Sequence record: OZ035771.1 | Length of the DNA: 64,000 nucleotides | From: Phapecoctavirus DIJ07P2 | Direction: 5' to 3' (one strand) | Part shown: positions 4,574 through 63,935 of the stretch, piece by piece | Layout: every line of letters begins with the position of its first letter | Numbering within the stretch: the first letter of the stretch is position 1 | Program-made: the position numbers and the translations under genes | Notes under the pieces: generated by a model | What the model was told of the DNA's origin: nothing | The model's database searches: none | The model's input: the letters and a program-made list of their open reading frames with translations, nothing else

Positions 4574-7204
4574 TTAACGATCCTCTCTGATTTGATTAAT
4601 CTTACGAGCAAGGGCAGCTATAAGCTTATCTTCTTCAGATACAGGAGCCGTGCTCTTACCTAAACGATGCATGTCTAAAATCTCTTGAACAGTTCGGTTC
4701 CATTGCAGACATTTAATACAACGTGTATGTGCAACATACAGAAGATTTCGTTCTGATTCTTCAAGACCTACCCACTCACCCTTCTTATCGTAATTAGAAG
4801 GGAAGTCATTTGCAACAATAACCTGATCCCATTCCAAACCTTTTGATTTGTGGGCTGTAGTTAAAGTAACTTTAGCCGTTGGAGAGTTACGGTGCATACG
4901 TAAAGTGTATGCAATATTATTAGCTTTACCAGAAACAACAATGTTTAAAAGTCGTTTTGCATCAGGATCTGATTCTGCACACTCTACAAATTCTTCCCAA
5001 GAAGTGTAAGGTAGAACTGTCTCATGCTTAACTTTGTCCAAATCACCTCTACGTAAAGCATTAACACTATCAACCATAGAAATGAAATCTTTGGTATCTA
5101 CGTTAATAATAATCTCTTCTCCGTTAGCGATTCGATCCATTGCCTCCATAAGCAAGGTTAAATTCTTGCGAAAGATGATAGTGTAAGGTTTTGTATAGTC
5201 TACAACATCTGATTTGTAGCTACCTACTACAGTATCAAAGCCTTTACCAACCAAAGGATGACGCAAAGGTTCTTTATCGCTTAAAATCATATTGGCAATG
5301 TTTGCCACTTTGGGGCCAAAACGGAAGCAAGCAGTTAATGGAAGCTCTGCCCCATACTTAGCTGTTTCAATCATCATATTAGAGCTACCTCTAAATTGAT
5401 AAATGCAGTTGTGGCTAAGAATTTCATTGCCAAAGAAGTTAGCAGTATCCTCTACTTCAATATCATAATAGATACCCTCACTATCTACAATGTCCACAAT
5501 CTCTTCTGCCGTTACAGTATCACCATCTTTTACCAACACAGACATGCCTTTAAACAAACCCGCTGCCGGAATTAAGTTATATTTGGCAGTGTCTACAGAG
5601 GACATGCATTCTTTTAAAGATGCAAACGGAACTATTTCAAGGATCTTTTGTGCAAAACTCAATGCTTCACAATAAGAATTGAAATATTTACGTACACGGT
5701 AACGACCTTCCAATTTAGCAACACTTACGCTTACACCTGCTTTAATGAGTGAAGCATAGATCGGCATTTCACTTTCTGTCCACTCAAAACTGACTTGTGT
5801 TCCTTTACAACCTTGTGCTCGCAAAGTCACTGTTAACATTTTTCTTTCATCTACTGCACAATTGATGCTGTGCCAATGTGGATAAGCAAAATGATAGTCT
5901 TTATCCTCTAAAAGTTTAAAACCATTCTGTCCGAATTGTTCAAAGATGTTATTGATCCTTTCTTGATTAATGCCGCGTGAACTTGCTTCAAATACACAAG
6001 TAGGAATGCCATATTGTAAACTGTATGCCATTTCTTTTTCCATAGCAGCTTCGCGATTTTCAACAATGTCCAACACCCATAATTTCTGTGCTTTTTCAGA
6101 ACGTGTACGTTGCCCCAGTTTAGAAAAACCTTCTTTATCATCGAATTTGTTAGTGATCCCTACTCGGAAACCTAAATCTTTCCTCCACATTAGGTATACC
6201 ACCATCTGGTCATCTTTCAGAACATAAGATGAAGCCCAAATACGATGGTTATGTGTCATATCTAAAGTTTTACCTGTAGCAGTAATAATATTCCTACCTT
6301 TTGTACGTGTAGATAAAGTCTTATTTGTTACTTTTCTAAATGTAACTTTACCATTAGAATAAGACTCTACCTTATCACCGATTTGCAGGTCTTTCATTGT
6401 AACCTGACCATTCTCGGTGTTAAGTACCGTGTTTTCCGACACACATTGAAATTCATCACCCACAACAACAATACGTTTAGCCGATTTAGCATTACGAAGG
6501 ATAGACAGGAATGCAGGGTTAACATCCTGGAATTCATCTCCAAAAATAATATCGTATCCTAAATCTTCTTTGCTCAATTCAAAGAGTTTCACATAGGTGT
6601 CATGAGTCATAATGGTTTCTGATTTAGGATCAATACGCTCACGCCAAAGTTGCTTCGCATATTTAACAACTTCGTTAATAAGTTTTTGTTCGTTGATGTT
6701 TTTACGTTTTAGGTCTGACATGTGCACTTTAGGAAAATGTTTATGTCCGATATGTTCATCGTCAGAAAACTCATATTTAGCTAAAGTTTGTTTTACCATT
6801 AACCCGATCATTGCACGAGTCAGTAGCACTTTACCATTCTTATCGATCAAGTTCTGAATCTTAAATTTCTTGGCAATCTCACTACCAGTTCCAGCTACGT
6901 TAACATATTGACCTTCTGGACGAGATAATTTGTGTCGAAGGTTTTGTGGAAGACGCTGGTAACAGATAGAATGTAGCGTTCGGCACATAACATTGGGCGG
7001 CATTTTACGTCGAGCTTCCTCTGCCATACTTTTGTTAAATGCCAAATATAGAATACTATCATTTGTGCCATTAGCCAACATATACAGTGTTGACGTTTTA
7101 CCTGATCCAGATTTAGCTTGAATTGTAACGAAACGATTTTCTTTATACCCGCTTTCAATAGCGTATTGTTCATCAGTAGGTGTAAAACTCAATTGTGTAG
7201 ACAC
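4574..7204 (-). CDS. SF1 (UvrD/PcrA-like) DNA helicase containing an intein
   Basis: Walker A AKSGSGKTS, motif II IFGDEFQD, motif III VVVGDEFQ|CIYQFRGS split by insertion, C-terminal TAHKSKGLEW and VAHTRC motifs. Confidence 0.85.
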   Translation of the reverse strand: MSTQLSFTPTDEQYAIESGYKENRFVTIQAKSGSGKTSTLYMLANGTNDSILYLAFNKSMAEEARRKMPPNVMCRTLHSICYQRLPQNLRHKLSRPEGQYVNVAGTGSEIAKKFKIQNLIDKNGKVLLTRAMIGLMVKQTLAKYEFSDDEHIGHKHFPKVHMSDLKRKNINEQKLINEVVKYAKQLWRERIDPKSETIMTHDTYVKLFELSKEDLGYDIIFGDEFQDVNPAFLSILRNAKSAKRIVVVGDEFQCVSENTVLNTENGQVTMKDLQIGDKVESYSNGKVTFRKVTNKTLSTRTKGRNIITATGKTLDMTHNHRIWASSYVLKDDQMVVYLMWRKDLGFRVGITNKFDDKEGFSKLGQRTRSEKAQKLWVLDIVENREAAMEKEMAYSLQYGIPTCVFEASSRGINQERINNIFEQFGQNGFKLLEDKDYHFAYPHWHSINCAVDERKMLTVTLRAQGCKGTQVSFEWTESEMPIYASLIKAGVSVSVAKLEGRYRVRKYFNSYCEALSFAQKILEIVPFASLKECMSSVDTAKYNLIPAAGLFKGMSVLVKDGDTVTAEEIVDIVDSEGIYYDIEVEDTANFFGNEILSHNCIYQFRGSSNMMIETAKYGAELPLTACFRFGPKVANIANMILSDKEPLRHPLVGKGFDTVVGSYKSDVVDYTKPYTIIFRKNLTLLMEAMDRIANGEEIIINVDTKDFISMVDSVNALRRGDLDKVKHETVLPYTSWEEFVECAESDPDAKRLLNIVVSGKANNIAYTLRMHRNSPTAKVTLTTAHKSKGLEWDQVIVANDFPSNYDKKGEWVGLEESERNLLYVAHTRCIKCLQWNRTVQEILDMHRLGKSTAPVSEEDKLIAALARKINQIREDR
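5408..6445 (-). mobile_element. Intein (346 aa) within helicase motif III
   Basis: Starts CVSENTVLNTENGQVTMKDLQIGDKV (block A), has TLDMTHNHRIW (block B), ends YDIEVEDTANFFGNEILSHN followed by extein Cys; codon checks at 6443-6445 (Cys) and 5408-5410 (Asn). Confidence 0.8.
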
Positions 7205-39776: not shown

Positions 39777-40577
39777 TTATTTGTTTAAATGGTCTTCAAC
39801 CATTTTGATAAAGCCTTCATCACTGAAGACTGTTCCTGCTTTCTCTCGGTAGACAAGCACTCCACGTTCTTCGTAGAGAGTTTGTTCTACAAAATTCAAA
39901 CCTGGGTTAACTACAACCATCTTAACCCCAATATTCAGGGCAGGGAAGAGTTCCCAGTTGAAGTTGATTACTTGGTTAGAGCAGCCTACAACGATAACCA
40001 TATCTTGTGATGTTAGTTGATCCAGTTTGTGATACATGTCTGTGTAGAGCGGTGCATTCTCACCAAAAAACACCACATTAGGCTTCACATATTTGTAATC
40101 GTCTACATCAATAGCTGCGTAACCCACATCTTTGATAATTTTGTTATCAACAACAACTTCTGGCAAGAAACCATGAACGTGCAATATTTCTTCTCTATCG
40201 ATTCCAGCGCGTTCTAATAGATCGTCAACGTTAGTAGTGATGTTAATAATCCTTTCTGCACCGTATTTTTCGAACCATTCTCCAATCTGAAGATGTGCTG
40301 GATTCGGGTCAACTTTCTCTAATTCCACGCGACGTTTATTGTAGAAGTCGTGAGTTTTACGGTAGAGGTTATATCCTTCCACATCTAAGCCACCCATAGC
40401 ATCAGGAATACCCTGTTCTTGCTGATAACCGGCACGGAAGTTGAAAATGTCACAAACCTCAGAAAGATCATAAGAAGACCATAACGCCTCCCCTGAAGAA
40501 GTATCTGTTCTAAAAGCTGGGATACCGCTATCCACAGATAGTCCTGCGCCAGTTATGAATATGACTCTACGCGGCAT
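39777..40577 (-). CDS. SIR2-family (sirtuin-like) NAD-dependent protein, zinc-ribbon-less
   Basis: GAGLSVDSGIPAFR, TTNVDDLLERAG, LHVHG, VVFFGE, VVGCSNQV motifs; no CxxC pairs. Confidence 0.7.
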   Translation of the reverse strand: MPRRVIFITGAGLSVDSGIPAFRTDTSSGEALWSSYDLSEVCDIFNFRAGYQQEQGIPDAMGGLDVEGYNLYRKTHDFYNKRRVELEKVDPNPAHLQIGEWFEKYGAERIINITTNVDDLLERAGIDREEILHVHGFLPEVVVDNKIIKDVGYAAIDVDDYKYVKPNVVFFGENAPLYTDMYHKLDQLTSQDMVIVVGCSNQVINFNWELFPALNIGVKMVVVNPGLNFVEQTLYEERGVLVYREKAGTVFSDEGFIKMVEDHLNK

Positions 40578-41307
40578 AAATCTCCTCCTTATATTTTTCG
40601 CAAATGCTTTTATTTGCAGGTTTATATTTTTCTTTCATCACCTTCAATCTTAGCTTCTCCAGAGCTATAGCACATCTCTCTGGATCGTTGAAACCATATT
40701 TGCAATACGTGGTCTTGTCAAACACAAACTTGAAAAAGAATGTTCTCTCTCTTGTTGCCACAAACACACAACTTAATCCTGAAGTGTTATCTATACGCTT
40801 CTTTTCTTTTTTGATATAAGATCCTTTCAAAATTTCTTGTTTTGCTAAAGCTCTAGCTACAATAGCTTCCTCTTTAGTTTTGAAACCTGAAACAGAGAAA
40901 GTTTCTTGGTTGTAGTTTATAACCCAAAGAAAAACACCATCCTTTTCATAAATACCTTCTAACCCATCCACATGTCTATTATTATTATTTAATAAATAGT
41001 TACTATCTAATAAATTACTTTCCGCATTATTAAGTTTATTGCCGTCGTCATGGTCTATAACATCTGGACAGTAATTATGGTACATTTTAAAACAAACTCT
41101 GTGCTCCAAGTATACAATACCATCTATTTTGACATGAGAGTAACCAACTTTATCAATAGTCCCTGCAATCTTCCCTGCGTATCTGCTATTCCACCTTTTG
41201 TTCTCTTTTGTTGTAGAAGGTTTAGGTTTCCAAACAAGACGACCATTCTCCACACTAAACCTTGATAACAAGTAATCTCTATCTGGTAAGGGTTTTCGTT
41301 CTATCAT
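40567..41307 (-). CDS. Freestanding homing endonuclease (HNH with AP2-like DNA-binding domain)
   Basis: HRVCFKMYHN...IDHDDGNKLNN HNH-like motif and VSGFKTKEEAIVARALAKQE AP2-like segment; overlaps SIR2 start by 11 nt. Confidence 0.65.
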   Translation of the reverse strand: MIERKPLPDRDYLLSRFSVENGRLVWKPKPSTTKENKRWNSRYAGKIAGTIDKVGYSHVKIDGIVYLEHRVCFKMYHNYCPDVIDHDDGNKLNNAESNLLDSNYLLNNNNRHVDGLEGIYEKDGVFLWVINYNQETFSVSGFKTKEEAIVARALAKQEILKGSYIKKEKKRIDNTSGLSCVFVATRERTFFFKFVFDKTTYCKYGFNDPERCAIALEKLRLKVMKEKYKPANKSICEKYKEEIYAA

Positions 41308-41792
41308 TCACCCTCGTCCTCCTCAAATGGATCATAAGAATCATATTCGTAAGTATCATCTTCTGAAAATTCTACTTCAAAGTAAATATCAAACTCTGCA
41401 AACAAACGTAGAATGTTGGACATGCTGTAATAGTTATCATAAGCTTCCTCTGCTTCATAGTAGAGGCGTAGCAAACGTTCAGCTTCTTCATCTTCTACCC
41501 ATTTATGATCGACATAGACAGAAGCAGCGTAGGTATTGTAGGCTTGTTCCCGAATATCGACAAGATTTCGGCTCAACAGTTCAGGGAAGTCCTTATAATT
41601 TACATTCAGTCTTCCGCATAACCACAAAGCAATATCATGCCAATCTGCATCCATACCACTAAAGCAACTTGCTTCTTCTCCAAAAGAAGCTTCTCCTAAA
41701 TCACCACTAATACGAACAACATTAGATGAATTATAGCCACACGTTTCACAATCAGAGTAACTATTATGCACATTGATATTTACTTGAAACAT
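41304..41792 (-). CDS. Hypothetical acidic protein (162 aa)
   Basis: ATGA-coupled. Confidence 0.5.
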   Translation of the reverse strand: MFQVNINVHNSYSDCETCGYNSSNVVRISGDLGEASFGEEASCFSGMDADWHDIALWLCGRLNVNYKDFPELLSRNLVDIREQAYNTYAASVYVDHKWVEDEEAERLLRLYYEAEEAYDNYYSMSNILRLFAEFDIYFEVEFSEDDTYEYDSYDPFEEDEGE

Positions 41793-45775: not shown

Positions 45776-46051
45776 TTAGTATTTCTCCTCCGGTTGGAAA
45801 ACTGAACGACAAGCCCACATACTAGCTTCTTTTAAATGTTTAATAGCACAACGGATTTGATCAATACGCTCGTATGCAACATCTAATTCTTTTTCTGTGC
45901 CGTCAAAAGACCCATGATATGCTTCACAATACTCTTCCTCTAAAGCTTTGAAGATTAAACCTAAACGCTCTTCTGCATCTTTAATAGCGTTAACCTTGCC
46001 AATCTTATCGTCAGTATGCGCCTTATAACCTTTGATATCTTCGATTCCCAC
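45776..46051 (-). CDS. Hypothetical protein (about 91 aa, GTG start)
   Basis: AGGAGG RBS 5 nt before GTG. Confidence 0.45.
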   Translation of the reverse strand: MGIEDIKGYKAHTDDKIGKVNAIKDAEERLGLIFKALEEEYCEAYHGSFDGTEKELDVAYERIDQIRCAIKHLKEASMWACRSVFQPEEKY

Positions 46052-52471: not shown

Positions 52472-53230
52472 TTAAATAAACACTTCAGTAATCAGTTTAG
52501 ACAAACGTCCACGTTTATTATCGTCCGTTGTCAGTTCAACATATCCAATAAAATCTACAATTGGCTCACGAACACCTTCTTCATTTTCTGGATATAAAAG
52601 TTCCAAAATTTGATGCAGACCATTGCTACGTTTTTTAATTGCATATGTCTGGCGAACATCGCCTAATACAATAACATGCGTATTAATACCTGCACGTTCA
52701 ATAAGAAGTTTAAGTGTTTCTGTTGACATAAGTTGTGCTTCGTCAATAATGACAATTGTATTATCCAGGGTAGCTCCCAACAAATAGTTAGGAATATTCA
52801 ATTCGATCTTACCTGATCCAATATCATTTTCCAATTTATTGGCTGTCATGAATTGCTGGAAAATACGTTTTGTAGATTCGTAGTGTGCTGCTAGTTTATC
52901 TGTTTTATCCCCAGACAAGAAACCAATCTGGTCATCTCCGACTTCAGTAGGGTTCTTGATAAAAAGTAGTTTACGGAAGTCTCCTGAACGAAGCATCTGC
53001 AAAGCTTTCCATAAAGCAACAGAGGTTTTACCAGTCCCTGCCGGAGCATTTACAACAGTCAGATCATTCCAAATCATGCTTTGAACAATCTTATTTTGGT
53101 CCCCTTCAGGCATAAATTCATCTAAACGGTAATCGTCATTACCTACCGCTTTTGCTGCATAACGGCTTTCAATCTTTGCTGAATTAGCCAGTTTCTGCCG
53201 TTGTGTTTTAGCTGCGGTTTTATTTCCCAT
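52472..53230 (-). CDS. phoH: PhoH-like ATPase
   Basis: Walker A PAGTGKTS and Walker B VIIDEAQ; start moved to MGNK after AAGGAG. Confidence 0.85.
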   Translation of the reverse strand: MGNKTAAKTQRQKLANSAKIESRYAAKAVGNDDYRLDEFMPEGDQNKIVQSMIWNDLTVVNAPAGTGKTSVALWKALQMLRSGDFRKLLFIKNPTEVGDDQIGFLSGDKTDKLAAHYESTKRIFQQFMTANKLENDIGSGKIELNIPNYLLGATLDNTIVIIDEAQLMSTETLKLLIERAGINTHVIVLGDVRQTYAIKKRSNGLHQILELLYPENEEGVREPIVDFIGYVELTTDDNKRGRLSKLITEVFI

Positions 53231-53246
53231 AGTAGCACTCCTTTTA

Positions 53247-53266
53247 GAAGGGGCCGAAGCCCCTTT
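53247..53266 (-). promoter_or_regulatory. Conserved GGGGC-CGAA-GCCCC stem-loop between lysozyme and phoH
   Basis: Same hairpin as at 39754 and 58609, here without minus-strand T-tract. Confidence 0.4.
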
Positions 53267-53267
53267 A

Positions 53268-53768
53268 TTAGTTGTAAGCATCTAAAGTTCCAGAAGTCAG
53301 AACTTTAATTACTCGTTCAGCACGGTTTGGCGTCTGGCTATACCATCGGCTTTTACGCATGTTTTTACCTGCTTGAGTATAATATGCATTGCTGATTAAA
53401 GTCAAGCTATTTTTAAACCCTTCAGCACCTTTTAACCCCAACTGGAAAACCATGTTGATTATTCCCAATTTACGAGTATCACTCACCTTATCATAGATTG
53501 GTGATAAGATAGCACTGTTTTTTATGTCTCTCTTCACTTTTGCAACATCGTCAGCAAAGATTTGACGGGCTTCTTTTTCTGTGATAACTCCATTGGTCTT
53601 ACGACCAAGGAGATTATCTAAGATTTGAATAGCCTTTGCTTTATCTTTTATTTTAGTCAGAAGGTGTCCTATGCCGACTGTCCAATAACCAAGATGGTCT
53701 TGATAAACAGTAAGCTTCAGTCCTTCATCGACTCGTAGCATATCAAACTCATCTACTACTTTAGCCAT
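53268..53768 (-). CDS. T4-type lysozyme (endolysin)
   Basis: FDMLRVDEGLKLTVYQDHLGYWTVGIGHLLTK and NMVFQLG...SRWYSQTPNRAERVI closely parallel T4 lysozyme as recalled. Confidence 0.9.
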   Translation of the reverse strand: MAKVVDEFDMLRVDEGLKLTVYQDHLGYWTVGIGHLLTKIKDKAKAIQILDNLLGRKTNGVITEKEARQIFADDVAKVKRDIKNSAILSPIYDKVSDTRKLGIINMVFQLGLKGAEGFKNSLTLISNAYYTQAGKNMRKSRWYSQTPNRAERVIKVLTSGTLDAYN

Positions 53769-53775
53769 TTACTTC

Positions 53776-53925
53776 CTATTCGTCATCTCCTACTCCGTGA
53801 TCCAACTCGTTAAACAACAGGTGTTCTGGAGAAGTTTCACGTTTTGGTTTCGTTTTCTTTATGTTGGACTTCAGCTCATTTGCCAAAGCACGAGAAAAGA
53901 TCTTACGTTTCTGTTTACTTTTCAT
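53776..53925 (-). CDS. Small basic protein (49 aa), self-derived
   Basis: MKSKQKRKIFSRALANELKSNIKKTKPKRETSPEHLLFNELDHGVGDDE. Confidence 0.35.
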   Translation of the reverse strand: MKSKQKRKIFSRALANELKSNIKKTKPKRETSPEHLLFNELDHGVGDDE

Positions 53926-53930
53926 AATTG

Positions 53931-54191
53931 TTACTCCGCAATTTGAGCCATGAGATCACGCAGTTCGGTAAAACCGCCTACGTATGTTACCTCCCCGTTC
54001 ACTTCAGACAGAATTTGTGGAAATGTGCGTGGAGGAACTCCGGTAAGATCAACAACTGTTTTAGTCATTGATTCTAAATCGTAGTCTTGGTCAAGACTTA
54101 AATATTCAAACTGTTTATTGCGCATGGTTAATAGTTGTTTTGACATTTCGCAAAATTGACAGTTAGGTTTACCAAAAATTACAAATTCCAT
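53931..54191 (-). CDS. Glutaredoxin/thioredoxin-like redox protein (probable RNR reductant)
   Basis: 86 aa with CQFC active-site motif; lies between rmlD and lysozyme in the nrd operon. Confidence 0.6.
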   Translation of the reverse strand: MEFVIFGKPNCQFCEMSKQLLTMRNKQFEYLSLDQDYDLESMTKTVVDLTGVPPRTFPQILSEVNGEVTYVGGFTELRDLMAQIAE

Positions 54192-55033
54192 TACCTCTCC
54201 TTATTAAGTAATACTGCTAAAGACCGTTCAATACCTTTATTTAAATCTGATTTTGTAAGATAGTGACTGGTTACTAATTGTGACTTCACCGGACGTGCTG
54301 CTGGAGCATTATAGGTTGAAGCTGATACCGCCGATATCTTAACAGGTTCTGGCATCTGTGTCAAGATCTTTTCCGCAAACTCCGCCCAAGAAATAAGATG
54401 GCTTCCTGCAAAATGGTAAGTCTTTACAGATCTTGACCAACCTGTTTTTAATACTTCAAAAATAGCTTCTGCTAAATCTGGGGCATATGTTGGACAAGAG
54501 AACTGATCAGCAACAATAATAAAATCACGTTGTCCATCATTATAGCGAGACAACATGGTTTTTAGAAAGTTATTTCCAAATTCACTATATACAGACGCTG
54601 TTCGAATAATATATGCGTTTGGGTTAACTCCTCGCACCATTTTTTCACCGAGTTCTTTCGTATACCCATAATTGTTTATCGGGTTAGGTGTAGTGTCTTC
54701 AAAAATAGGATGAGAATAATTAAAAATATAGTCTGTAGAAATATGCACAAAATCAATTTTAAGTTTGCTGCACACTGCCGCAATATTTGCAGGGCCATAG
54801 GCATTAACAGCCAAAGCAGTAGCAAAATCCTGTTCTGCTTTATCTACAGCCGTATAAGCAGCGCAATTAATAACACCATCTACATAATCTTCAACAATAG
54901 CGTTTCGCACAGCTTCAAAATTTGTAATATCTACACGTTCTTTAGGATAAATTAAAGACACATTTGAAGGAGCCACTTTACGTAAAGCTTGTCCCAGTTG
55001 TCCATTACCACCCAATACCAGATATGTTAGCAT
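54191..55033 (-). CDS. rmlD: dTDP-4-dehydrorhamnose reductase
   Basis: LVLGGNGQLG Rossmann motif, STDYIF and YGYTK motifs. Confidence 0.8.
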   Translation of the reverse strand: MLTYLVLGGNGQLGQALRKVAPSNVSLIYPKERVDITNFEAVRNAIVEDYVDGVINCAAYTAVDKAEQDFATALAVNAYGPANIAAVCSKLKIDFVHISTDYIFNYSHPIFEDTTPNPINNYGYTKELGEKMVRGVNPNAYIIRTASVYSEFGNNFLKTMLSRYNDGQRDFIIVADQFSCPTYAPDLAEAIFEVLKTGWSRSVKTYHFAGSHLISWAEFAEKILTQMPEPVKISAVSASTYNAPAARPVKSQLVTSHYLTKSDLNKGIERSLAVLLNKER

Positions 55034-55593
55034 ACACCCTCGCTACGTAGCTGTTGAAAAGACTTAGCCATTGCATCTTTTGTTGATAAGATAGGTTTAA
55101 AATCTTCGTCAAAAATCATATCGAAGCCCCAATCAATCCCTATATCAGGATCATCCCAACGTAAACTTTGTTCGCTGGAAGGGTCGTATGGAGTTGTGCA
55201 TTTGTATTCGAAGATAGCATCCATACTCAACACTATAAAACCATGCGCCAAACCAGGTGGAAGCCAGAACTGTGTATGGTGTCGTGCACGAAGAACAACA
55301 CCGTCCCAAGCACCGTAAGTAGGACTATCTTTACGTAGGTCTACAGCGAAATCCAATACTTCCCCACTTACACAACGAACAAGCTTACCTTGCGGATTAT
55401 TTGTTTGAAAGTGCATTCCTCGCAAAACACCGAAGTTTGATTTAGACATGTTATCTTGAACGAAAGTTTGTCTACCGATGATATCTTCGTATTTTTGTTC
55501 ATTATATGTTTCTAAAAAGAAACCACGATCATCTTTATAAACGTCTGGTTTGATAATTACCGCACCTTCAATTTTTGTTTTTTCTACTTTCAT
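55027..55593 (-). CDS. rmlC: dTDP-4-dehydrorhamnose 3,5-epimerase
   Basis: KIEGAVIIKPDVYKDDRGFF, GMHFQ, WLPPGLAHGF cupin motifs; start moved to MKVEKTK after GGAGAG. Confidence 0.8.
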   Translation of the reverse strand: MKVEKTKIEGAVIIKPDVYKDDRGFFLETYNEQKYEDIIGRQTFVQDNMSKSNFGVLRGMHFQTNNPQGKLVRCVSGEVLDFAVDLRKDSPTYGAWDGVVLRARHHTQFWLPPGLAHGFIVLSMDAIFEYKCTTPYDPSSEQSLRWDDPDIGIDWGFDMIFDEDFKPILSTKDAMAKSFQQLRSEGVC

Positions 55594-55737
55594 TTTCTCT
55601 CCGCTAATTTGAGTAGGTATTGCCCGTACTCTGTTTTCTTCAGTGAGTTTCCATGATATACCAAAGTCTCTAAAGAAATCCACCCTTTTTTGAAAGCAAT
55701 TTCTTCCAGGCACGCAATCTTCAACCCTTGACGGTTC

Positions 55738-56658
55738 TCAATAGTTTGCACTCCAACCCAGTTCAGACTCTATCTTAGAAGGATTGATTTCATAACGCAA
55801 GTCATGCCCTTTACGATCTTCAACAAAAGTTATCAAGTTGGAAGAAGGGTAGGTTCCTGCTTCTGGATGTACAGCATCCATGTAGTCACAAACCATATAG
55901 ATGATCTCCATATTGGTTTTGGGATTACGTGTTCCCACATTATACGTTTTACCTGGTTCTCCACCTGTTGCCACTTGAAGAATAGCTCGCGCATGATCCT
56001 CAACAAAAAGCCAGTCTCGCACCTGATCGCCTTTACCATACACCGGAATCTCTTTATTCGTCAAGATACTTGTGATGATTTTTGGGATCAGCTTTTCTGG
56101 ATGTTGATAGGGTCCAAAGTTATTGGAGCAGTTGGTTATCACAACAGGCAAATCGTAGGTACGGTGCCAAGCTTTCACAAGATGGTCAGATGCTGCCTTA
56201 GACGCACTGTATGGGCTTGAAGGGGCATAAGCTGTCTCTTCGGTAAAGGGAACGCCAGAGTCTGCCATATCGCCGTACACTTCGTCTGTGGAGACGTGTA
56301 CGAACATCTTCAGTTTATTCTTTGGGAGGAGCCTTGCAGCTTCCAATAAATTGTATGTACCAATAATATTGGAGTCGATGAAAACTCGTGGATTCTTGAT
56401 AGAATTATCCACATGACTCTCTGCCGCTAAGTGAATGATGAAATCGGGATTGCACTCTACTACTAAACTTTTTACTTGGGCTTCGTTTGCCAAATCTGTC
56501 ATGCTTAGTTTAACGTGAGTGATATCGCCTACATTCTCAATATCTGCTGCATAGCTCATCTTATCAACGACAAAAACTTCGTTATTAGGATCTTGACAAA
56601 GAGAGCGCACCACGGCACTCCCAATAAAACCAAGACCACCTGTTACCAGATAGCGCAT
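55738..56658 (-). CDS. rmlB: dTDP-glucose 4,6-dehydratase
   Basis: MRYLVTGGLGFIGS, YSASKAASDHLV (YxxxK), HVSTDEVYG. Confidence 0.85.
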   Translation of the reverse strand: MRYLVTGGLGFIGSAVVRSLCQDPNNEVFVVDKMSYAADIENVGDITHVKLSMTDLANEAQVKSLVVECNPDFIIHLAAESHVDNSIKNPRVFIDSNIIGTYNLLEAARLLPKNKLKMFVHVSTDEVYGDMADSGVPFTEETAYAPSSPYSASKAASDHLVKAWHRTYDLPVVITNCSNNFGPYQHPEKLIPKIITSILTNKEIPVYGKGDQVRDWLFVEDHARAILQVATGGEPGKTYNVGTRNPKTNMEIIYMVCDYMDAVHPEAGTYPSSNLITFVEDRKGHDLRYEINPSKIESELGWSANY

Positions 56659-56667
56659 CAGTTCTCC

Positions 56668-56994
56668 TTACCAGACGTTTTGTGATACTAATGTTTCAGT
56701 TTCAATATTATACTTATTAAGCAGTTCAAAATAGATCTCATTCGCTTTTTTATTTAAGCTTGTGAGGTCTATGGCACAAGCACCACAGCCGCTACACAGC
56801 TTGACACCGAAGACACAATCTTCAGGATCTGCATCGTACCACGGGGAAATGTTTTCCAAGCCCAAACCTTCGCAGAGAAACCAATTAAAGTCCCCATCGA
56901 ACTGGTCTTCAACTTGTGGGTCGTCTCCAAATATTTCTTTCCATTTATCATATGGTGCACCCTGTAACATACGCCATTCGATATCAATACCCAT
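56668..56994 (-). CDS. Cys-containing small protein (108 aa)
   Basis: CSGCGAC cluster; upstream of rmlB. Confidence 0.5.
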   Translation of the reverse strand: MGIDIEWRMLQGAPYDKWKEIFGDDPQVEDQFDGDFNWFLCEGLGLENISPWYDADPEDCVFGVKLCSGCGACAIDLTSLNKKANEIYFELLNKYNIETETLVSQNVW

Positions 56995-57148
56995 TATTCA
57001 TCTCCTCCTCTTCTTGAGCAGCTTTAATAATTGCTTCATAAATATCGTAAGCAATACCTCCACAACATCTAGCTTCGAAAGCTATTGCTTCTGCAATGTG
57101 ATCTGTTAATTCTCGTGGAATGCGGACATACTCTTTTTCACTCTCCAT
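56984..57148 (-). CDS. Small protein (54 aa), self-derived
   Basis: MESEKEYVRIPRELTDHIAEAIAFEARCCGGIAYDIYEAIIKAAQEEEEMNNGY; overlaps both neighbours. Confidence 0.4.
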   Translation of the reverse strand: MESEKEYVRIPRELTDHIAEAIAFEARCCGGIAYDIYEAIIKAAQEEEEMNNGY

Positions 57149-57290
57149 CTTCTACCTCCAACCCTTCTTTTTCAAAGACTACTACTCGCCCCTCACCATG
57201 ACAATTCAGGCAAGGAAATGTTACCATAATTTCCACTTCCATTTGTCCAGTCCCACCACACACAGGACAAAAAATAAGTTTTTCAGCCAT
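57138..57290 (-). CDS. Zinc-ribbon micro-protein (50 aa), self-derived
   Basis: AGGAGG RBS; CPVCGG...CLNCHG two CxxC pairs; TAATG overlap with upstream stop. Confidence 0.45.
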   Translation of the reverse strand: MAEKLIFCPVCGGTGQMEVEIMVTFPCLNCHGEGRVVVFEKEGLEVEDGE

Positions 57291-57499
57291 TATTCCTCCT
57301 TAATTATTTCAAACTTGGCAACACCATTTACAATAATATGACCACAAGACATAACTCCTAGCCAAGGATCGCCGTTTTTCTTCAGGCGTTTACCGAATAC
57401 ATCACAAAAACCATTCTTCATTTCAGAGGCTTCATAAGAAGCCCCTTTATCAAAAACGTCTTTGAATGTGTCGATTATACCAACACATTTCAAAATCAT
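57290..57499 (-). CDS. Hypothetical protein (69 aa)
   Basis: ORF just downstream of nrdB. Confidence 0.5.
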   Translation of the reverse strand: MILKCVGIIDTFKDVFDKGASYEASEMKNGFCDVFGKRLKKNGDPWLGVMSCGHIIVNGVAKFEIIKEE

Positions 57500-58584
57500 T
57501 CGAAGTCAAGCTCCTCATCATCAGAGAGATCTTTGTTAGCTGAATTTAATTTGTAGTTAGTTAACTGAATCTCTTGGGCTGCTGACTGAATCAAATCAGG
57601 ATTCAACCATTTTTCCATCCAAGCTAAAGGACTATGTTTAGGTGCTTTAAACTTGGCTTTCATTTTCAATCGACGATAAATAGGAGCAGCATTGAAATAA
57701 ACCCATTGTTTAGACAATTCGGCGTTAAGACCTACAATAAAACGCCCTTCACTAAACAGGTAGTCACACCACTGTTCCTCTTGTTCAACAACAGTGTCGA
57801 GAATCAAAGTCAACTCTTCGATATTGTCTTCGTAAATTTTACGCCAAATTGGGTCATGCATCAATGCATCAATTACAGCATAATCCATCTTAACATGCAA
57901 GATTTCATCTAGCATAATTTTCTGGATCAGTTTACAAGCTCCAACAAACAGTTGTTGTTCTGCCATAGCAAAAGTAGCAGAGAAGGAAGATATAAACTGA
58001 ATACCTTCTAACCCAATCAGGGCTACCATCCCTTTAAGAATCAGCAGTCGAAGTTCATCGTTAGCTTCAATCAATCCTAGAGCATACTTATGACCAGCTT
58101 CTTCCAACTGACCCATGATATCAGCAATGATACCCATACGATTGAAAATTTTATCATTAATCATAATCTGATTGATGACTTCGATTGGATCTGGAGTACA
58201 TTGACGGATTATTTCAGAATACGTTAACGCATGGAGAACTTCCATTTCACTCTGCTTCATCATCATAGCACAGGCTTCATTGTTACTCAAGAATGGAGAG
58301 AACAAAGTGATGATTGATTTTGCAAGAGAATCATTTTCCCATTGGAACGATAAGTTTTTAATCATAACATCATAGTTGTTTTTAGAACAAGCTACGAAAT
58401 CTTTACGTGTCTGATCCAAGTTAACTTCGTTTTCATCCCAATCTTGTGCTTTTTGAAGTTTGTAGAGTTTGTGCATTTCTGGATAAGTCACGTTAACAGA
58501 ATCAAAGATCCCTAATTGTTCCCCTAAAAATACTGGATATTTTCCTGTTTTGTAAACTTCATTGTGTAAATTAATTGCTGCCAT
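57496..58584 (-). CDS. nrdB: Ribonucleotide reductase small subunit (class I)
   Basis: 362 aa with E..H iron-ligand motifs (EMEVLHALTYSE, LEGIQFISSF, EILHVK). Confidence 0.9.
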   Translation of the reverse strand: MAAINLHNEVYKTGKYPVFLGEQLGIFDSVNVTYPEMHKLYKLQKAQDWDENEVNLDQTRKDFVACSKNNYDVMIKNLSFQWENDSLAKSIITLFSPFLSNNEACAMMMKQSEMEVLHALTYSEIIRQCTPDPIEVINQIMINDKIFNRMGIIADIMGQLEEAGHKYALGLIEANDELRLLILKGMVALIGLEGIQFISSFSATFAMAEQQLFVGACKLIQKIMLDEILHVKMDYAVIDALMHDPIWRKIYEDNIEELTLILDTVVEQEEQWCDYLFSEGRFIVGLNAELSKQWVYFNAAPIYRRLKMKAKFKAPKHSPLAWMEKWLNPDLIQSAAQEIQLTNYKLNSANKDLSDDEELDFE

Positions 58585-58601: not shown

Positions 58602-58622
58602 AAAAAAGGGGGCCGAAGCCCC
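58602..58622 (-). terminator. Minus-strand terminator (GGGGC-TTCG-GCCCC + TTTTTT)
   Basis: Between endonuclease stop and nrdB RBS. Confidence 0.55.
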
Positions 58623-58629
58623 TTTATAT

Positions 58630-59286
58630 TTAGCCTCGAAACACTGTTTTTGTTTCAGCCAGATGCCAATAGAAATCCGCCTTGTTTACAAGAGTGTTGT
58701 ACACCTCTTGATAAAAATGTTCTTCCTCTTTGTAACGATCCGCTGTTTCCCTGATTGACTTAGCTTTATCCTTTAGCCAAGCGAAGTGTGCCTCTTCCTC
58801 TGTAGCGAAGTAACCTAAATGCTTACCTTTGCTCCCAGAAGCTTTGGCATAAATCTTACCATCTTTCCTAACATGTGCTCCTAGTAAGTATTTTCTTTCA
58901 TACCTCTTAGCATAACTTAAGAGTGTATTTATGTAAGGAGGAACAAACCTACAATATTCAGGACAGTAAACAGTATTTCCTTCAAGAACAAGATCTTTAT
59001 CTAAAACAAAGCCTTCCACGTTATGTTCTTGATACCAGTTATCAAAGTTTGAAAAGGTGAACCAAGCATCACACACGGTAACATCTTTATAACCTGGTCT
59101 AATGTTTTCCATACGATATGCGCGATTAAACATGCCTTTCCAAGCTGCATAGGAAGGATCTATGAATGTATTAACCCTTTTTCCATTGATAACACCACCT
59201 TCCCACAATCTACGTTCAACATCCACAATCAAGGGGATTTCTCCCCTCTCTGTGAGAACGGTAACTTTACGTTTACCCTTCTTCAT
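58630..59286 (-). CDS. Freestanding homing endonuclease-like protein (AP2-like domain) between nrdA and nrdB
   Basis: GKHLGYFATEEEAHFAW AP2-like segment; intergenic position between nrdA and nrdB. Confidence 0.55.
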   Translation of the reverse strand: MKKGKRKVTVLTERGEIPLIVDVERRLWEGGVINGKRVNTFIDPSYAAWKGMFNRAYRMENIRPGYKDVTVCDAWFTFSNFDNWYQEHNVEGFVLDKDLVLEGNTVYCPEYCRFVPPYINTLLSYAKRYERKYLLGAHVRKDGKIYAKASGSKGKHLGYFATEEEAHFAWLKDKAKSIRETADRYKEEEHFYQEVYNTLVNKADFYWHLAETKTVFRG

Positions 59287-59297
59287 CTGTTCTCCTA

Positions 59298-61541
59298 CTA
59301 CATTTTACAGGCACTACACCCTTCGTCTTCAGAATCTTCTTGTGCTAAAGAATCTGCTGATTTTGTTCTACTGTTAAGATAATACAACGACTTGCCACCC
59401 AATCTAGCAAAATTCAGAATAAACTGCATCTCGGCTTTCACTGATAAACGTCCACCTACCAATTTAGAATAATCTAGCCAAGAATCACAAGAAATTCCTT
59501 GGTCTGTAAACTTGGTAAAGATACCATACATTTCTGCAAGGTCTTTAGCCGGAGTATCCCAGGCGGATTGGTAGAACATTTTCAGTTTTTCGTAGTCTGG
59601 AACAATAAATAATACACTACCTTTCTGACTTTGTTTATACATAATAGTATCACGAACAGGGTACAGAGAGTTAGTAGTATTGCTTACCAAACTGCTGGAC
59701 TCATTAGGTGCAATAGCAGCCAAGACACTATTACGGATACCACCTTGTTCAATGATTTCAGCACGTAAACCTTCCCAGTCCATTTTAAGATCAAAGTTAC
59801 CGACACTATCTACTGCTTTAGCATAGGTGTCAATCGGTAGCCAACCTTGAGGCCATTTGGTCTTATCGATCCATTCTGCATTACCTTTTTCCTTAGCCAG
59901 ACGCAAAGAGGCTTTTGCCAACCAAAAGTAATGACGTTCTGCAAGTTCATGCATTAATTTTTTAGCATAATCATCTGAATAATTTACAAAATTACTTGCC
60001 AAGTAATGTGCTAAGTTTGTAATGCCTACACCAATAGATCTACGTGCTTTAGCAGTTATTTCGTTATGTTTAAATGGATAATCCATTGTTTCAATAACGT
60101 TGTCAATTGTCAATACAGTGTAGTATGCAACATCCTCATATTCTTCAGGTAATACACGACCAGCAACAATAGAAGATAAGAAACATAAAGCCAATTCTTG
60201 ATCTTCTGTATTTTCACCAGTAAAGAGATCCGGCATACTGTGAAAAGCTTTAGTTGGTAAGAAGATCTCTTGACACAGGTTTGATTGATACACCGTATCC
60301 AAGAAAGGTGTATGGTTGTTAACGTTGTCAGCAAAGAACATGTAAATACGTCCTGTTTCTGCACGTTGAACAATAATCTCTGTCAGAAGATCACGAGCCT
60401 TAACAAATTTTTTCTTAATGCGACGTCGGCTTACTTTGTCATAAACTGCATCAAACTCTTCTTCACTTTTATACAAAGCTTCATAAAGTTCAGGAGCATC
60501 ATCACAACTAACTAACATCCAGTCTTCGTTTTTTGCTGCTCGACGCAAGAACGAACGGTTAACAACAATAGAATAATCCAGTTTGTCTACTCGTTTATCT
60601 ATAGGTGTTGTTGGATTCTTCAGTCGAATCAGATCGTCGAAGTCTGGTTCAAGTATGGTAAAGGTAACTGTAGCACTACCTCCACGGCTTGCTTGCTTCG
60701 AAGCTCCAACACTATCTTCCATCCATTTCAGATACGGAAGAAGACCACCGTGAATAATACGATTATTCTTAACACCTTGACCTGTGGCACGAGTTTGAAG
60801 ATTAACACCAATACCTGCGTTATTCAATGTATACTCATGAGCTAAGTAATTAGCAATGGCTAAAGATTCTGCCGTATCGTCTGCACGGAATAAACAACAA
60901 GACGCACTTCCTTTGATTGGAGTTCGTAGAGTCGTCAGATACGGCGATGGCAGATTAATCTTAAGATCGCTAACATAAGTATAAAGTTTTTTAATATCTT
61001 CTATACGGCGTTCTTTTGGTTGGATCTCCATAACCTTCATTGCGATACCAATGAAAAGAAACTGTGGAGACTCATGCACCACATCGTTTACTGCATCTCG
61101 AATAAGATATTTATCTACCATCTGACGTAAAACAGAATAACCATAAGTTAGATTTTTATTATGCTTTACAATCTTACCGATTTCTTTGATCTCTTCGTCA
61201 GTATAATCCATTTTAGCCCAATGTCCACGTTCTACCATATCATGATAAAAGGTATTCAGTGAAGGGATACTGTGGTATCCCCCATGAGCCTGTTTGTAAA
61301 TCATACCCAGAAGAAGTCTTCCTGCCATATCACTGTAAGCTTGTGTTTTCTTGTCAATACACGCTGCAATCATTGCTTTATGCAGATCACGTGTAGACAC
61401 ACCGTCATAACACCGCTTCACAGCTTCTAATTCAATTTCAGACCAGTTTAGTTTACCTGCTGCAAATTCAGACCACTTGCGAAGTTTTTCTGGATTAAAC
61501 TCCTCTGTCTTACCGTTAGATTTAGTTACAAAACGAATCAA
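59298..61541 (-). CDS. nrdA: Ribonucleotide reductase large subunit (class Ia)
   Basis: 747 aa; N-terminal ATP-cone-like segment, catalytic-core similarity by eye. Confidence 0.9.
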   Translation of the reverse strand: MIRFVTKSNGKTEEFNPEKLRKWSEFAAGKLNWSEIELEAVKRCYDGVSTRDLHKAMIAACIDKKTQAYSDMAGRLLLGMIYKQAHGGYHSIPSLNTFYHDMVERGHWAKMDYTDEEIKEIGKIVKHNKNLTYGYSVLRQMVDKYLIRDAVNDVVHESPQFLFIGIAMKVMEIQPKERRIEDIKKLYTYVSDLKINLPSPYLTTLRTPIKGSASCCLFRADDTAESLAIANYLAHEYTLNNAGIGVNLQTRATGQGVKNNRIIHGGLLPYLKWMEDSVGASKQASRGGSATVTFTILEPDFDDLIRLKNPTTPIDKRVDKLDYSIVVNRSFLRRAAKNEDWMLVSCDDAPELYEALYKSEEEFDAVYDKVSRRRIKKKFVKARDLLTEIIVQRAETGRIYMFFADNVNNHTPFLDTVYQSNLCQEIFLPTKAFHSMPDLFTGENTEDQELALCFLSSIVAGRVLPEEYEDVAYYTVLTIDNVIETMDYPFKHNEITAKARRSIGVGITNLAHYLASNFVNYSDDYAKKLMHELAERHYFWLAKASLRLAKEKGNAEWIDKTKWPQGWLPIDTYAKAVDSVGNFDLKMDWEGLRAEIIEQGGIRNSVLAAIAPNESSSLVSNTTNSLYPVRDTIMYKQSQKGSVLFIVPDYEKLKMFYQSAWDTPAKDLAEMYGIFTKFTDQGISCDSWLDYSKLVGGRLSVKAEMQFILNFARLGGKSLYYLNSRTKSADSLAQEDSEDEGCSACKM

Positions 61542-62318: not shown

Positions 62319-63317
62319 TCACCATTTAGTATGATTTGTTAAAAGTTGACGATGTTGAATCCAGCCTTTGAAATTGCCAGACCAAAACTTACCATTACGA
62401 TCTACATGGGTAATACCTGGCTCCCAAGAGTTAAAATCCCAGGGAGCATTGATAAACCAATCTTCAAAACAATTCTCTCCGTATTGTTCGCATGTTTCTT
62501 GCATTGGGGTGGCTTGATGTTCAAACGGAGAAGCATGAACCTTGCGCCCAGTCAGCAAACGACCATAGATATCTAAAGCTTTATCTTTAGTTGCATTTAA
62601 ACGACGATAGCTAACCTGTGCACAACACGACGCTGAAATAGCTTTAGCTTCTTCCAAAGTAAGCATAACAACTTCTCCAGATTCGTCTTGAACACAGTAT
62701 CCACCAAAAACAAAATGATCATCACCTTCTGTGCCAATATTATCGTAGAAATGATCTACATAAGGTGTATGCCATTGTCCTGGTTCCAGCACTTCTGGTG
62801 TAGATTCTTCATACTCTTTGTGCATCTCTTTAGCCAAAGCTTCGATAGTAGGATCAGCTTCTTTGTCATCACGTAGCCACCAGAAATTTTCATACTCTGT
62901 TGCTGTCAGAACTGTTTTAATTCGTTGGAAAGGTTCCAGAAGACGGTTTGCAACTTGTTTGTGGTACCCTGCCAAAGAGAATTCTTCTGCGAAACGTGCT
63001 GCACTAAGCGCGGCAAGATCCCACCACTCTTGAGCAGTATAACCTGCATCAATAAGAGCGTCATGATCAACACCTTTATCCTGCATACCAGGTTGGTTAG
63101 CCCCAAAACGATAAGGACGAGCAGGTTGATTTCGCACCATTTCAATCAGTGTTTTAACAGGTATAGCACGGCTAGAAGCAGCATTACGACTGAACAGGCG
63201 GTGAGTCATCAATTCTGAATGAATAATACGTGGATATTCCAGTTCAAAAGTTACAATCTCTTTTCCGTCTTCAGTGATGGAATGCGCAATAATACTAGCC
63301 GAAATCTGTTTTGTCAT
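62319..63317 (-). CDS. thyX: Flavin-dependent thymidylate synthase
   Basis: ThyX signature-like THRLFSRNAASSRAIP (RHR...S..R). Confidence 0.8.
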   Translation of the reverse strand: MTKQISASIIAHSITEDGKEIVTFELEYPRIIHSELMTHRLFSRNAASSRAIPVKTLIEMVRNQPARPYRFGANQPGMQDKGVDHDALIDAGYTAQEWWDLAALSAARFAEEFSLAGYHKQVANRLLEPFQRIKTVLTATEYENFWWLRDDKEADPTIEALAKEMHKEYEESTPEVLEPGQWHTPYVDHFYDNIGTEGDDHFVFGGYCVQDESGEVVMLTLEEAKAISASCCAQVSYRRLNATKDKALDIYGRLLTGRKVHASPFEHQATPMQETCEQYGENCFEDWFINAPWDFNSWEPGITHVDRNGKFWSGNFKGWIQHRQLLTNHTKW

Positions 63318-63326
63318 TTTTTCTCC

Positions 63327-63935
63327 TTAGTTTTTAAAATTGTTCAAAGTGTTAAAAACGTCCAAACATGTTAGCCACTGATCTTCTAAACCTGTGATCA
63401 CAACATTTGGTTTTTTCTTTAGTTCTTCTAGATGGTTATCTTTATAAGGTGTATTAAAATATATTTTAACCACTTCATCTGGAAAATATAGTAGGTTATC
63501 AGCCCTGTCATCTATTGCTATATCACAAGGCAATAAATATTTTTCTTTTGTAGCAAAAAAGCCGTTACCAGATCCTTTGCTAAAATCAATCGTATCTAAT
63601 GTTCTTAAAACATGTTTATGCTTGGAACTCAAGTGACCACCTTTTGTCACACTTGCGATCAAAATATTGCTGCCTTTCCTTGAAACACACTTTAAGAAAT
63701 CTGGCATACCTGTAACAAAACCCATTGTATCATAGAGATGAGGATTATCCAGGAATCCGTAAGGATCTATATTGAACTCCTCCCTGAAACCAGGGAAGTA
63801 GTTGGTAAGATCGTAGTCTGCATTTTTTGTGAATGTGTCTATCTTAACACCAAGTCCACTAATCTTATTCAACCATTCTAACCAAGCAACATCTAATGGA
63901 GCCACAACTAAATCCCAATCACATACGATCTGCAT
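63327..63935 (-). CDS. HAD-superfamily 5'(3')-deoxyribonucleotidase-like protein
   Basis: N-terminal IVCDWDLVV (DxD) and overall length typical of NT5C-like nucleotidases. Confidence 0.5.
   Translation of the reverse strand: MQIVCDWDLVVAPLDVAWLEWLNKISGLGVKIDTFTKNADYDLTNYFPGFREEFNIDPYGFLDNPHLYDTMGFVTGMPDFLKCVSRKGSNILIASVTKGGHLSSKHKHVLRTLDTIDFSKGSGNGFFATKEKYLLPCDIAIDDRADNLLYFPDEVVKIYFNTPYKDNHLEELKKKPNVVITGLEDQWLTCLDVFNTLNNFKN

Follow-up and report, generated by a model that had tools for sequence, protein, structure and literature searches.

How a coliphage could make deoxythymidine diphosphate (dTDP)-L-rhamnose with rmlB, rmlC and rmlD and no rmlA is the question raised by a locus of Phapecoctavirus DIJ07P2 (record OZ035771.1), of which one stretch of 64,000 nucleotides (nt), here called the window, was analysed. 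A sequence-only reading had described the three genes as a pathway with no visible rmlA, placed between nrdB and a glutaredoxin-like gene. Alignment with relatives shows that the phage has the standard rmlB-rmlA-rmlC-rmlD operon and lost most of rmlA from it by deletion, so that no new design of the pathway is involved; the loss of 811 base pairs (bp) belongs to this isolate alone and also truncates rmlB. The account as a whole (a conserved operon, the 811-bp deletion, dTDP-L-rhamnose completed by the host, and a glycosyltransferase module as its user) is considered probable.

Deletion within the rml operon

The genes and scars of the locus, with scores from curated NCBIfam equivalog models (TIGR01181 for RmlB, TIGR01221 for RmlC, TIGR01214 for RmlD, TIGR01207 for RmlA), were as follows.

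54191-55033, minus strand: rmlD, dTDP-4-dehydrorhamnose reductase, 280 amino acids (aa), intact; TIGR01214, 238 bits against a cut-off of 224.05
55027-55593, minus strand: rmlC, dTDP-4-dehydrorhamnose 3,5-epimerase, 188 aa, intact; TIGR01221, 225.4 bits against a cut-off of 155.75
55590-55751, minus strand: 3' remnant of rmlA (glucose-1-phosphate thymidylyltransferase), codons 240-292 and the stop, between rmlB and rmlC
55743-55751, no strand assigned: point of the deletion, marked by a direct repeat of 9 nt with imperfect copies (GTGCARACT, read on the coding strand)
55738-56658, minus strand: rmlB homologue, 306 aa, C-terminally truncated; TIGR01181, 400.3 bits against a cut-off of 365.1

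All three encoded proteins passed their equivalog cut-offs and carried the catalytic motifs, which bears out the identities first given to them, and the order between nrdB and the glutaredoxin-like gene on the minus strand was confirmed. RmlC and RmlD are intact in this isolate, RmlB is truncated and functional RmlA is gone, and of the three genes first described rmlC and rmlD are thus complete and rmlB is not (306 instead of 330 aa).

RmlC was 100% identical to that of vB_EcoM-Ro121c4YLVW (hereafter Ro121c4YLVW), and its gene carried its own Shine-Dalgarno sequence (GGAGAG). Its best match in the PDB was Salmonella RmlC (1dzr, E 4e-56), with His61, Lys70, Tyr130 and Asp173 aligned to the catalytic residues of that structure. 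RmlD, whose gene overlaps rmlC by 7 nt, differed by 2 residues from close Phapecoctavirus relatives, matched Pfam RmlD_sub_bind (E 9e-74) and kept the motifs GGNGQLG, STDY (Thr100) and Y122-x3-K126, that is, the Thr-Tyr-Lys triad. RmlB retained GGLGFIG at residue 7, STDEVYG at 123 and YSASK at 150, and covered positions 1-297 of the 321 in TIGR01181, positions 298-321 being gone. It corresponds to residues 1-305 of a 330-aa protein, aligned to Ro121c4YLVW over 305 of 305 residues with one substitution, after which a single foreign Tyr precedes the stop (...GWSANY). The segment missing from its C-terminus aligns to conserved residues 321-341 of Salmonella RmlB. The protein therefore falls short of full-length RmlB, and the alignment does not support its presumed activity.

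All close relatives have 4,712 bp over the region where the window has 3,901 bp. Pairwise BLAST against KKP 3954 and Ro121c4YLVW returned two collinear pieces, which share 9 nt in the window and are separated by 811 bp in the relatives. The relatives carry one copy of the GTGCARACT repeat in rmlB and one in rmlA. Their coding strand reads ...GGTTGGA-GTGCAAACT-CTACATTT... near the end of rmlB and ...CAATTC-GTGCAGACT-ATTGAGAAC... within rmlA, and that of the window reads ...GGTTGGA-GTGCAAACT-ATTGAGAAC... at the junction. The event cost rmlB its final 25 codons and rmlA its codons 1-239, together with the 8 nt between the two genes, and because this single deletion cut inside both genes it left a truncated rmlB and an rmlA stub.

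Translated search (tblastn) with RmlA of Ro121c4YLVW matched residues 240-292 at 100% protein identity (E 1.5e-29). The remnant lies out of frame with the truncated rmlB, and its only start is a fortuitous GTG. It differs from Ro121c4YLVW at 5 of 162 nt, all synonymous in the old frame. Such a remnant has not decayed, therefore the deletion is, on this comparison, recent. The same search with the relative's RmlA returned no functional rmlA and no second rmlA-like match in the window beyond the 53-codon fragment, and no full-length TIGR01207 match was present (RmlA of the relative reaches 468 bits, the cut-off being 361). Pfam scans of 20 of the 21 open reading frames (ORFs) of at least 170 aa in 1-48 kb, together with ORFs near the locus, gave no nucleotidyltransferase or glycosyltransferase family. 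Relatives have essentially a single rmlA locus per genome (139 records, 141 places). The statement that the window lacks rmlA was thus correct for a functional gene and had missed the remnant at 55590-55751.

The contiguous junction was found in 0 of 47 phage records (INPHARED), and a 27-mer spanning it had no match in IMG/VR viral contigs, JGI metagenomes or GTDB genomes; since it was unmatched in all collections searched, the deletion is, by this sampling, private to the isolate. The same lack of a match in any other database sequence searched, and the origin of the window in an automated assembly of a public read set, are what an assembly or sequencing artefact would give, the operon of the true phage being intact. 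This is extremely unlikely. Typical assembler k-mers are far longer than 9 nt, and with a junction repeat of 9 nt that is moreover imperfect, reads spanning the junction must presumably exist. Exact look-up placed the truncated RmlB on a Logan contig of 143 kb assembled from run ERR12949680, identical to the window across the shared 18,262 nt, and on one further contig. Both flanks are collinear with relatives, and Ro121c4YLVW is collinear with the entire window. The deletion is taken as real because the repeat is too short for a k-mer misjoin and two contigs carry the truncated protein.

Retention of rmlC and rmlD and proposed supply by the host

At the locus, the window shared 96-99% nucleotide identity with the published Phapecoctavirus genomes whose records cover it (phAPEC8-like Escherichia coli myoviruses, Stephanstirmvirinae). 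Overall identity of the window to published genomes was 97-99%. Among 64 Phapecoctavirus-level records, about 41 held the full rmlB-rmlA-rmlC-rmlD set at this locus, and about 23 (about a third) held rmlC and rmlD only, all with the same boundary. Phages of the first group (e.g., phAPEC8, Ro121c4YLVW, KKP 3954, ukendt and nieznany) differ from the window in having no 811-bp loss, an rmlB of 330 aa and a functional rmlA, and none shares its junction. Those of the second (e.g., nepoznato, ESCO37, Mt1B1_P17, ZCKP1 and anhysbys) resemble the window in that only rmlC and rmlD are intact before the glutaredoxin gene, and the absence of rmlA and rmlB has been noted for ESCO37 (PMC10269720). Their deletion is an independent one: it follows gene boundaries at GGAGA and left no fragments, whereas that of the window cuts inside genes and left scars. 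In nepoznato rmlC directly follows the 108-aa gene that stands upstream of rmlB in the window, with the junction in the GGAGA ribosome-binding sequence common to rmlB and rmlC. As far as this junction tells, the deletion is clean and rmlC stays expressible.

The sister genus Justusliebigvirus, represented by Bas60 PaulScherrer, had an identical gene order and the same neighbours (nrdA-nrdB-small ORFs-rmlB-rmlA-rmlC-rmlD-grx-lysin-phoH), and differed by an extra 65-aa ORF before rmlB and by a protein identity of only 54-64% for RmlB, RmlC and RmlD, against 84% for NrdB. Because order and neighbours are shared with the sister genus, the four-gene cluster at this locus is, on gene-order grounds, ancestral to the Stephanstirmvirinae. 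A complete operon elsewhere, which the sequence-only reading had regarded as a sign of simple acquisition, was thus found, not at another place in the genome, but at this very locus in the sister genus and in some 41 records of relatives.

Compared with the bacterial rml/rfb genes (Salmonella RmlB 1g1a and RmlC 1dzr, E. coli RffG 1bxk), the phage proteins belong to the same enzyme families with conserved catalytic residues, and are clearly diverged from the enterobacterial ones (phmmer E 4e-56 for RmlC and 3e-111 for RmlB). Because of this divergence from the Salmonella enzymes, the rml genes are, on present alignments, an old phage lineage and not a recent host capture. Their order is B-A-C-D within a nucleotide-metabolism array, whereas the bacterial genes lie in the O-antigen cluster, in the order B-D-A-C in E. 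coli K-12.

In KKP 3954, rmlB is split by a 2-nt indel, and in P3322 rmlD is annotated as two coding sequences. By alignment, rmlA/rmlB were lost or damaged in at least three separate ways: the deletion at the ribosome-binding-site boundary, the indel of KKP 3954 and the deletion of the window. RmlC was recovered from 64 records at 95% identity or more and from 65 at 60-80%, and rmlC was thus present in every record. Between the window and the rmlCD-only phage nepoznato, omega was 0.02 for rmlC and 0.10 for rmlD, which indicates strong purifying selection. The distribution points to rmlC and rmlD as a core that is always kept, and to rmlA and rmlB as genes that are repeatedly lost.

E. coli makes dTDP-4-keto-6-deoxy-D-glucose, the substrate of RmlC, through RffH and RffG of the enterobacterial common antigen pathway, and RfbA and RfbB make it as well in rhamnose-containing O-serotypes. 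To our knowledge, RmlC and RmlD are limited to E. coli strains with rhamnose in the O-antigen. In infected E. coli, phage RmlC and RmlD could convert the intermediate made by RffH and RffG to dTDP-L-rhamnose. They would be the minimal set with which a coliphage obtains this sugar nucleotide in any host, and rmlA and rmlB would only raise the flux. We infer that the phage needs RmlC and RmlD and draws their substrate from RffH and RffG; the repeated loss of rmlA and rmlB with retention of rmlC and rmlD would then be explained, because the host supplies the intermediate. The isolate of the window would be functionally equivalent to the natural rmlCD-only phages.

The pathway might instead be dead in this isolate, with rmlC and rmlD as leftovers that have not yet decayed and a cluster that is dispensable under propagation conditions. 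The very recent date of the deletion, with its remnant identical in protein, fits such a state, as does the damage elsewhere, to rmlB in KKP 3954 and to rmlD in P3322; K-12-type hosts, moreover, make their own dTDP-rhamnose, and laboratory selection may be weak. Set against this are the purifying selection under which the rmlCD-only lineage holds both genes, the working ribosome-binding site that its deletion left to rmlC, and the presence of rmlC throughout the 64 Phapecoctavirus-level records as well as in the sister genus. A dead pathway is thus judged unlikely, and completion by the host is preferred.

Possible destination of the sugar

No glycosyltransferase was found in the window by tblastn with the four proteins of a relative or by Pfam scans of the larger ORFs. 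In the genome of that relative, four glycosyltransferase-like genes stand in tandem (gp027-gp030, by annotation), adjoining genes for the DNA polymerase and the primase/helicase, some 13 kb outside the window on the side of its position 1. The search for glycosyltransferases that the sequence-only reading had called for was thus answered in relatives and came back empty for the window itself. The distribution of gp029 homologues parallels that of RmlC (64 records at 95% identity or more, 66 at 60-80%). Prophages and metagenomic phages contain more distant gp029 homologues, which stand with a gp028-like partner between lysis genes and terminase. In an unrelated prophage of Enterobacter huaxiensis, gp027-, gp028- and gp029-like genes flank a short-chain dehydrogenase/reductase gene whose best match is dTDP-glucose 4,6-dehydratase. 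This linkage is the best indication that the module may use a 6-deoxyhexose donor, and because of it the module is probably where the sugar goes. The dTDP-rhamnose made during infection might accordingly be consumed by the conserved four-gene module beside the replication genes, a step put forward with more reserve than the completion by the host.

A compact gp027-gp029-like module between lysis genes and terminase was also observed in a Pseudomonas silvicola prophage and in metagenomic phages; homologues of the module seem to occur in many temperate phages at this position, and the function of this widespread module appears to be undescribed. For gp027, gp028 and gp029, there was no useful PDB match and no NCBIfam match, and all Pfam matches fell below their cut-offs.

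Glycosylation by a phage-borne deoxyhexose pathway is a plausible general idea, already published for the genus (PMC7552041), and the Justusliebigvirus genes have been termed a "putative dTDP glycosylation machinery" (PMC8594841). Three uses of the sugar had been proposed from the sequence (DNA, virion and host polysaccharide), and among these DNA glycosylation is the least supported. Rhamnosylation of the DNA has been suggested in the literature (PMC7552041, PMC10844046): dTDP-rhamnose would glycosylate phage DNA as rhamnosylated hydroxymethyl-pyrimidines, by analogy with the glucosylated hydroxymethylcytosine of T4 (Olsen et al. 2020). The likeness to T4-type DNA glycosylation lies in a phage-encoded GT-B fold and a nucleotide-sugar donor during infection, and the difference in the donor, which would be a dTDP-sugar and not a uridine diphosphate sugar, and in the hydroxymethylase, of which none was found here. 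Pfam scans of window ORFs and the whole annotation of a relative gave no ThyA-family dCMP/dUMP hydroxymethylase and no TET or JBP protein, although small or divergent proteins could escape such scans; the only thymidylate-type enzyme in either was ThyX. A match of gp028 to a TET-associated glycosyltransferase (E 1.3e-3) was considered as a sign of DNA modification and rejected, as it is confined to 36 residues that surround a DxD motif of generic type; generic GT4 enzymes outscore the T4 enzymes in the glycosyltransferase comparison. Vequintavirinae and the tested phi92-like relatives were reported to be "exceptionally susceptible" to restriction-modification systems (PMC8594841), and Bas61 and Bas62, which are phi92-like, are hit by Druantia III and ARMADA II, both of which the authors think recognise unmodified DNA (PMC13463889). 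Because the tested phages of the sister genus are restriction-sensitive and no hydroxymethylase was found, DNA glycosylation is disfavoured and held to be very improbable; a phage or cell-envelope component would be the likelier acceptor. That the Stephanstirmvirinae attach a rhamnose-containing glycan to such a component, for which a phage would minimally need RmlC and RmlD and the common-antigen intermediate of its host, is put forward only as a tentative possibility.

Several points weigh against host-completed synthesis of dTDP-L-rhamnose and its use by the module. Because the deletion is recent, intact rmlC and rmlD in this isolate are uninformative and prove nothing about current use. 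RmlD lies only narrowly over its cut-off, so its stereochemistry is not fixed by the score and the reductase product may be L-rhamnose or 6-deoxy-L-talose. Exact look-up of the closest allele of the gp module, sought in the source genome, returned other samples only. The co-occurrence of rml and glycosyltransferase genes is at the level of the subfamily and could reflect shared ancestry alone. Full-text searches of the literature on the cluster yielded annotation and hypotheses, and no functional experiment.

Surrounding genes and meaning of the locus

All genes between 47.9 and 64 kb of the window lie on the minus strand. Those around the rml genes were, in order of transcription:

62319-63317, minus strand: thyX, with a Thy1 match
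59298-61541, minus strand: nrdA, before the HNH gene and nrdB
58630-59286, minus strand: HNH endonuclease gene, 218 aa, phrog_953, between nrdA and nrdB
57496-58584, minus strand: nrdB, class Ia ribonucleotide reductase small subunit, Pfam Ribonuc_red_sm (on an identical copy of the gene)
57290-57499, minus strand: conserved 69-aa protein, phrog_4448 (E 2.5e-24)
57138-57290, minus strand: candidate zinc-ribbon micro-protein of 50 aa with two CxxCxGxG motifs (DnaJ-type zinc-finger signature), phrog_8027
56984-57148, minus strand: conserved 54-aa protein, phrog_20683 (E 7e-28), 96% identical in nepoznato
56668-56994, minus strand: 108-aa protein, phAPEC8-type allele with CSGCGAC, phrog_15453
53931-54191, minus strand: glutaredoxin-like protein of 86 aa, Pfam Glutaredoxin (E 1.8e-9, above the cut-off)
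53776-53925, minus strand: conserved basic protein of 49 aa, phrog_14981, between the glutaredoxin and lysozyme genes
53268-53768, minus strand: lysozyme, after the 49-aa ORF
52472-53281, minus strand: phoH, after the lysozyme gene

From nrdB, the first gene of the tightly packed array that holds the rml genes, to phoH, genes overlapped or were spaced by 9 nt or less, with the 144-nt gap between rmlB and rmlC as the sole exception. A strong terminator-like hairpin (GGGGCTTCGGCCCC) with a T run was noted directly upstream of nrdB (58609-58622, minus strand), after the HNH and nrdA genes. Because this hairpin separates HNH/nrdA from nrdB, nrdB and the rml array may form a transcription unit apart from nrdA. 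The glutaredoxin start overlaps the rmlD stop by 1 nt, and the protein, of which Ro121c4YLVW and nepoznato have identical copies, scores 38.1 bits with PF00462 (cut-off 22.9) and has the active site CQFC at residues 11-14. The 49-aa basic protein shared 85% identity with its Justusliebigvirus counterpart. The HNH insert (58624-59328) had no counterpart in Ro121c4YLVW or KKP 3954 and was found at 96-99% identity in 24 records across the two genera of Stephanstirmvirinae, a distribution typical of mobile homing endonucleases. Just upstream of thyX, a 202-aa protein (63327-63935, minus strand) matched NT5C at 23.9 bits, below the Pfam cut-off of 24.8; it would add a nucleotide-pool enzyme, a deoxy-pyrimidine 5'-nucleotidase, to the array.

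Such surroundings suggest a role other than that of a glycosyl donor, namely control of the nucleotide pool. RmlA is feedback-inhibited by dTDP-L-rhamnose, which in this scheme would inhibit RmlA-type enzymes of the host, spare deoxythymidine triphosphate (dTTP) and possibly drain the precursor of the common antigen. Around the cluster, with start and stop codons that overlap, lie thyX, nrdA, nrdB, glutaredoxin and the NT5C-like nucleotidase, and the rmlCD-only state, which requires no phage RmlA, would also suit the scheme. Yet RmlA and RmlB, which use up dTTP, are encoded by the majority of relatives and by the sister genus as a whole, and there is a conserved glycosyltransferase module, found in an independent prophage together with a 4,6-dehydratase. 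Pool control is thus distinctly unlikely, and dTDP-L-rhamnose as a glycosyl donor is preferred.

The four small ORFs upstream of rmlB are conserved genes of unknown function, each with its own PHROG family. The CSGCGAC-containing protein and the overlapping micro-ORFs, including one with a double CxxC, were present as first described (108 and 50 aa). The start of the 69-aa ORF overlaps the nrdB stop by 4 nt, and its product shared 84% identity with its Justusliebigvirus orthologue, the same level as NrdB. Pfam matches of the 50-aa protein were below threshold (DUF5351, 23.2 bits against a cut-off of 27; DnaJ_CXXCXGXG, PF00684, 22.8 against 32.7), and all four of its Cys pairs are kept in a 44%-identical Justusliebigvirus orthologue. 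The 108-aa gene has another allele in nepoznato and Bas60, 61-63% identical, in which LEGGEGS replaces the motif; nepoznato thus combines the rmlCD-only state with a Cys-free allele, whereas the window keeps CSGCGAC. A conserved metal or redox site at CSGCGAC was ruled out because every Cys of the motif is replaced in that natural allele. The nepoznato copy was near-identical to that of Bas60, and this allele sharing suggests exchange between Phapecoctavirus and Justusliebigvirus at the locus.

Elsewhere in the window, an 876-aa UvrD-like helicase (4574-7204, minus strand) had Hint/intein domain matches at residues ~253-599 and seems to carry an intein; the gene of a relative encodes 489 aa. 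A 293-aa ORF (1443-2324, minus strand) matched positions 1-263 of the 562 in the model of the anaerobic ribonucleotide reductase NrdD, the N-terminal half only, and nrdD appears split or interrupted, as annotated in a relative. After a Sir2-family protein (39777-40577, minus strand) came an ORF of 246 aa whose HNH_3 match stayed below threshold (region 39777-41307), within a segment (~40106-41316) that has no match in a relative; this ORF may be another mobile endonuclease insertion. A 91-aa ORF (~45776-46051, minus strand) belonged to the Pfam family Acb2_Tad1_hairpin, which suggests an anti-CBASS/anti-Thoeris signal-sponge protein. Among the records, "Campylobacter phage B15" and "A145" (MG065650.1, MG065645.1) matched genomes of E. 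coli Phapecoctavirus and Justusliebigvirus at 98% identity; wrong labelling or contamination with coliphages is the probable cause.

What was found is real and yet ordinary, an already known operon with a private deletion. Annotation of the rml cluster in phAPEC8-like phages goes back to 2012 and its discussion to 2020 (PMC7552041, PMC8594841, PMC6969025, PMC10269720, PMC10844046); dozens of GenBank records label it as dTDP-rhamnose genes. As such, the finding matters little. The pattern in which rmlC and rmlD are kept and rmlA and rmlB are lost offers a testable rationale, that RffH and RffG of the host supply the intermediate. The isolate is a natural rmlA/rmlB mutant that can be compared with near-identical wild-type phages, and if the rationale is true, it would be a ready-made rmlA/rmlB knock-out for testing host dependence. 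The glycosyltransferase module hints at the destination of the sugar in a phage group widely used in therapy and biocontrol collections.

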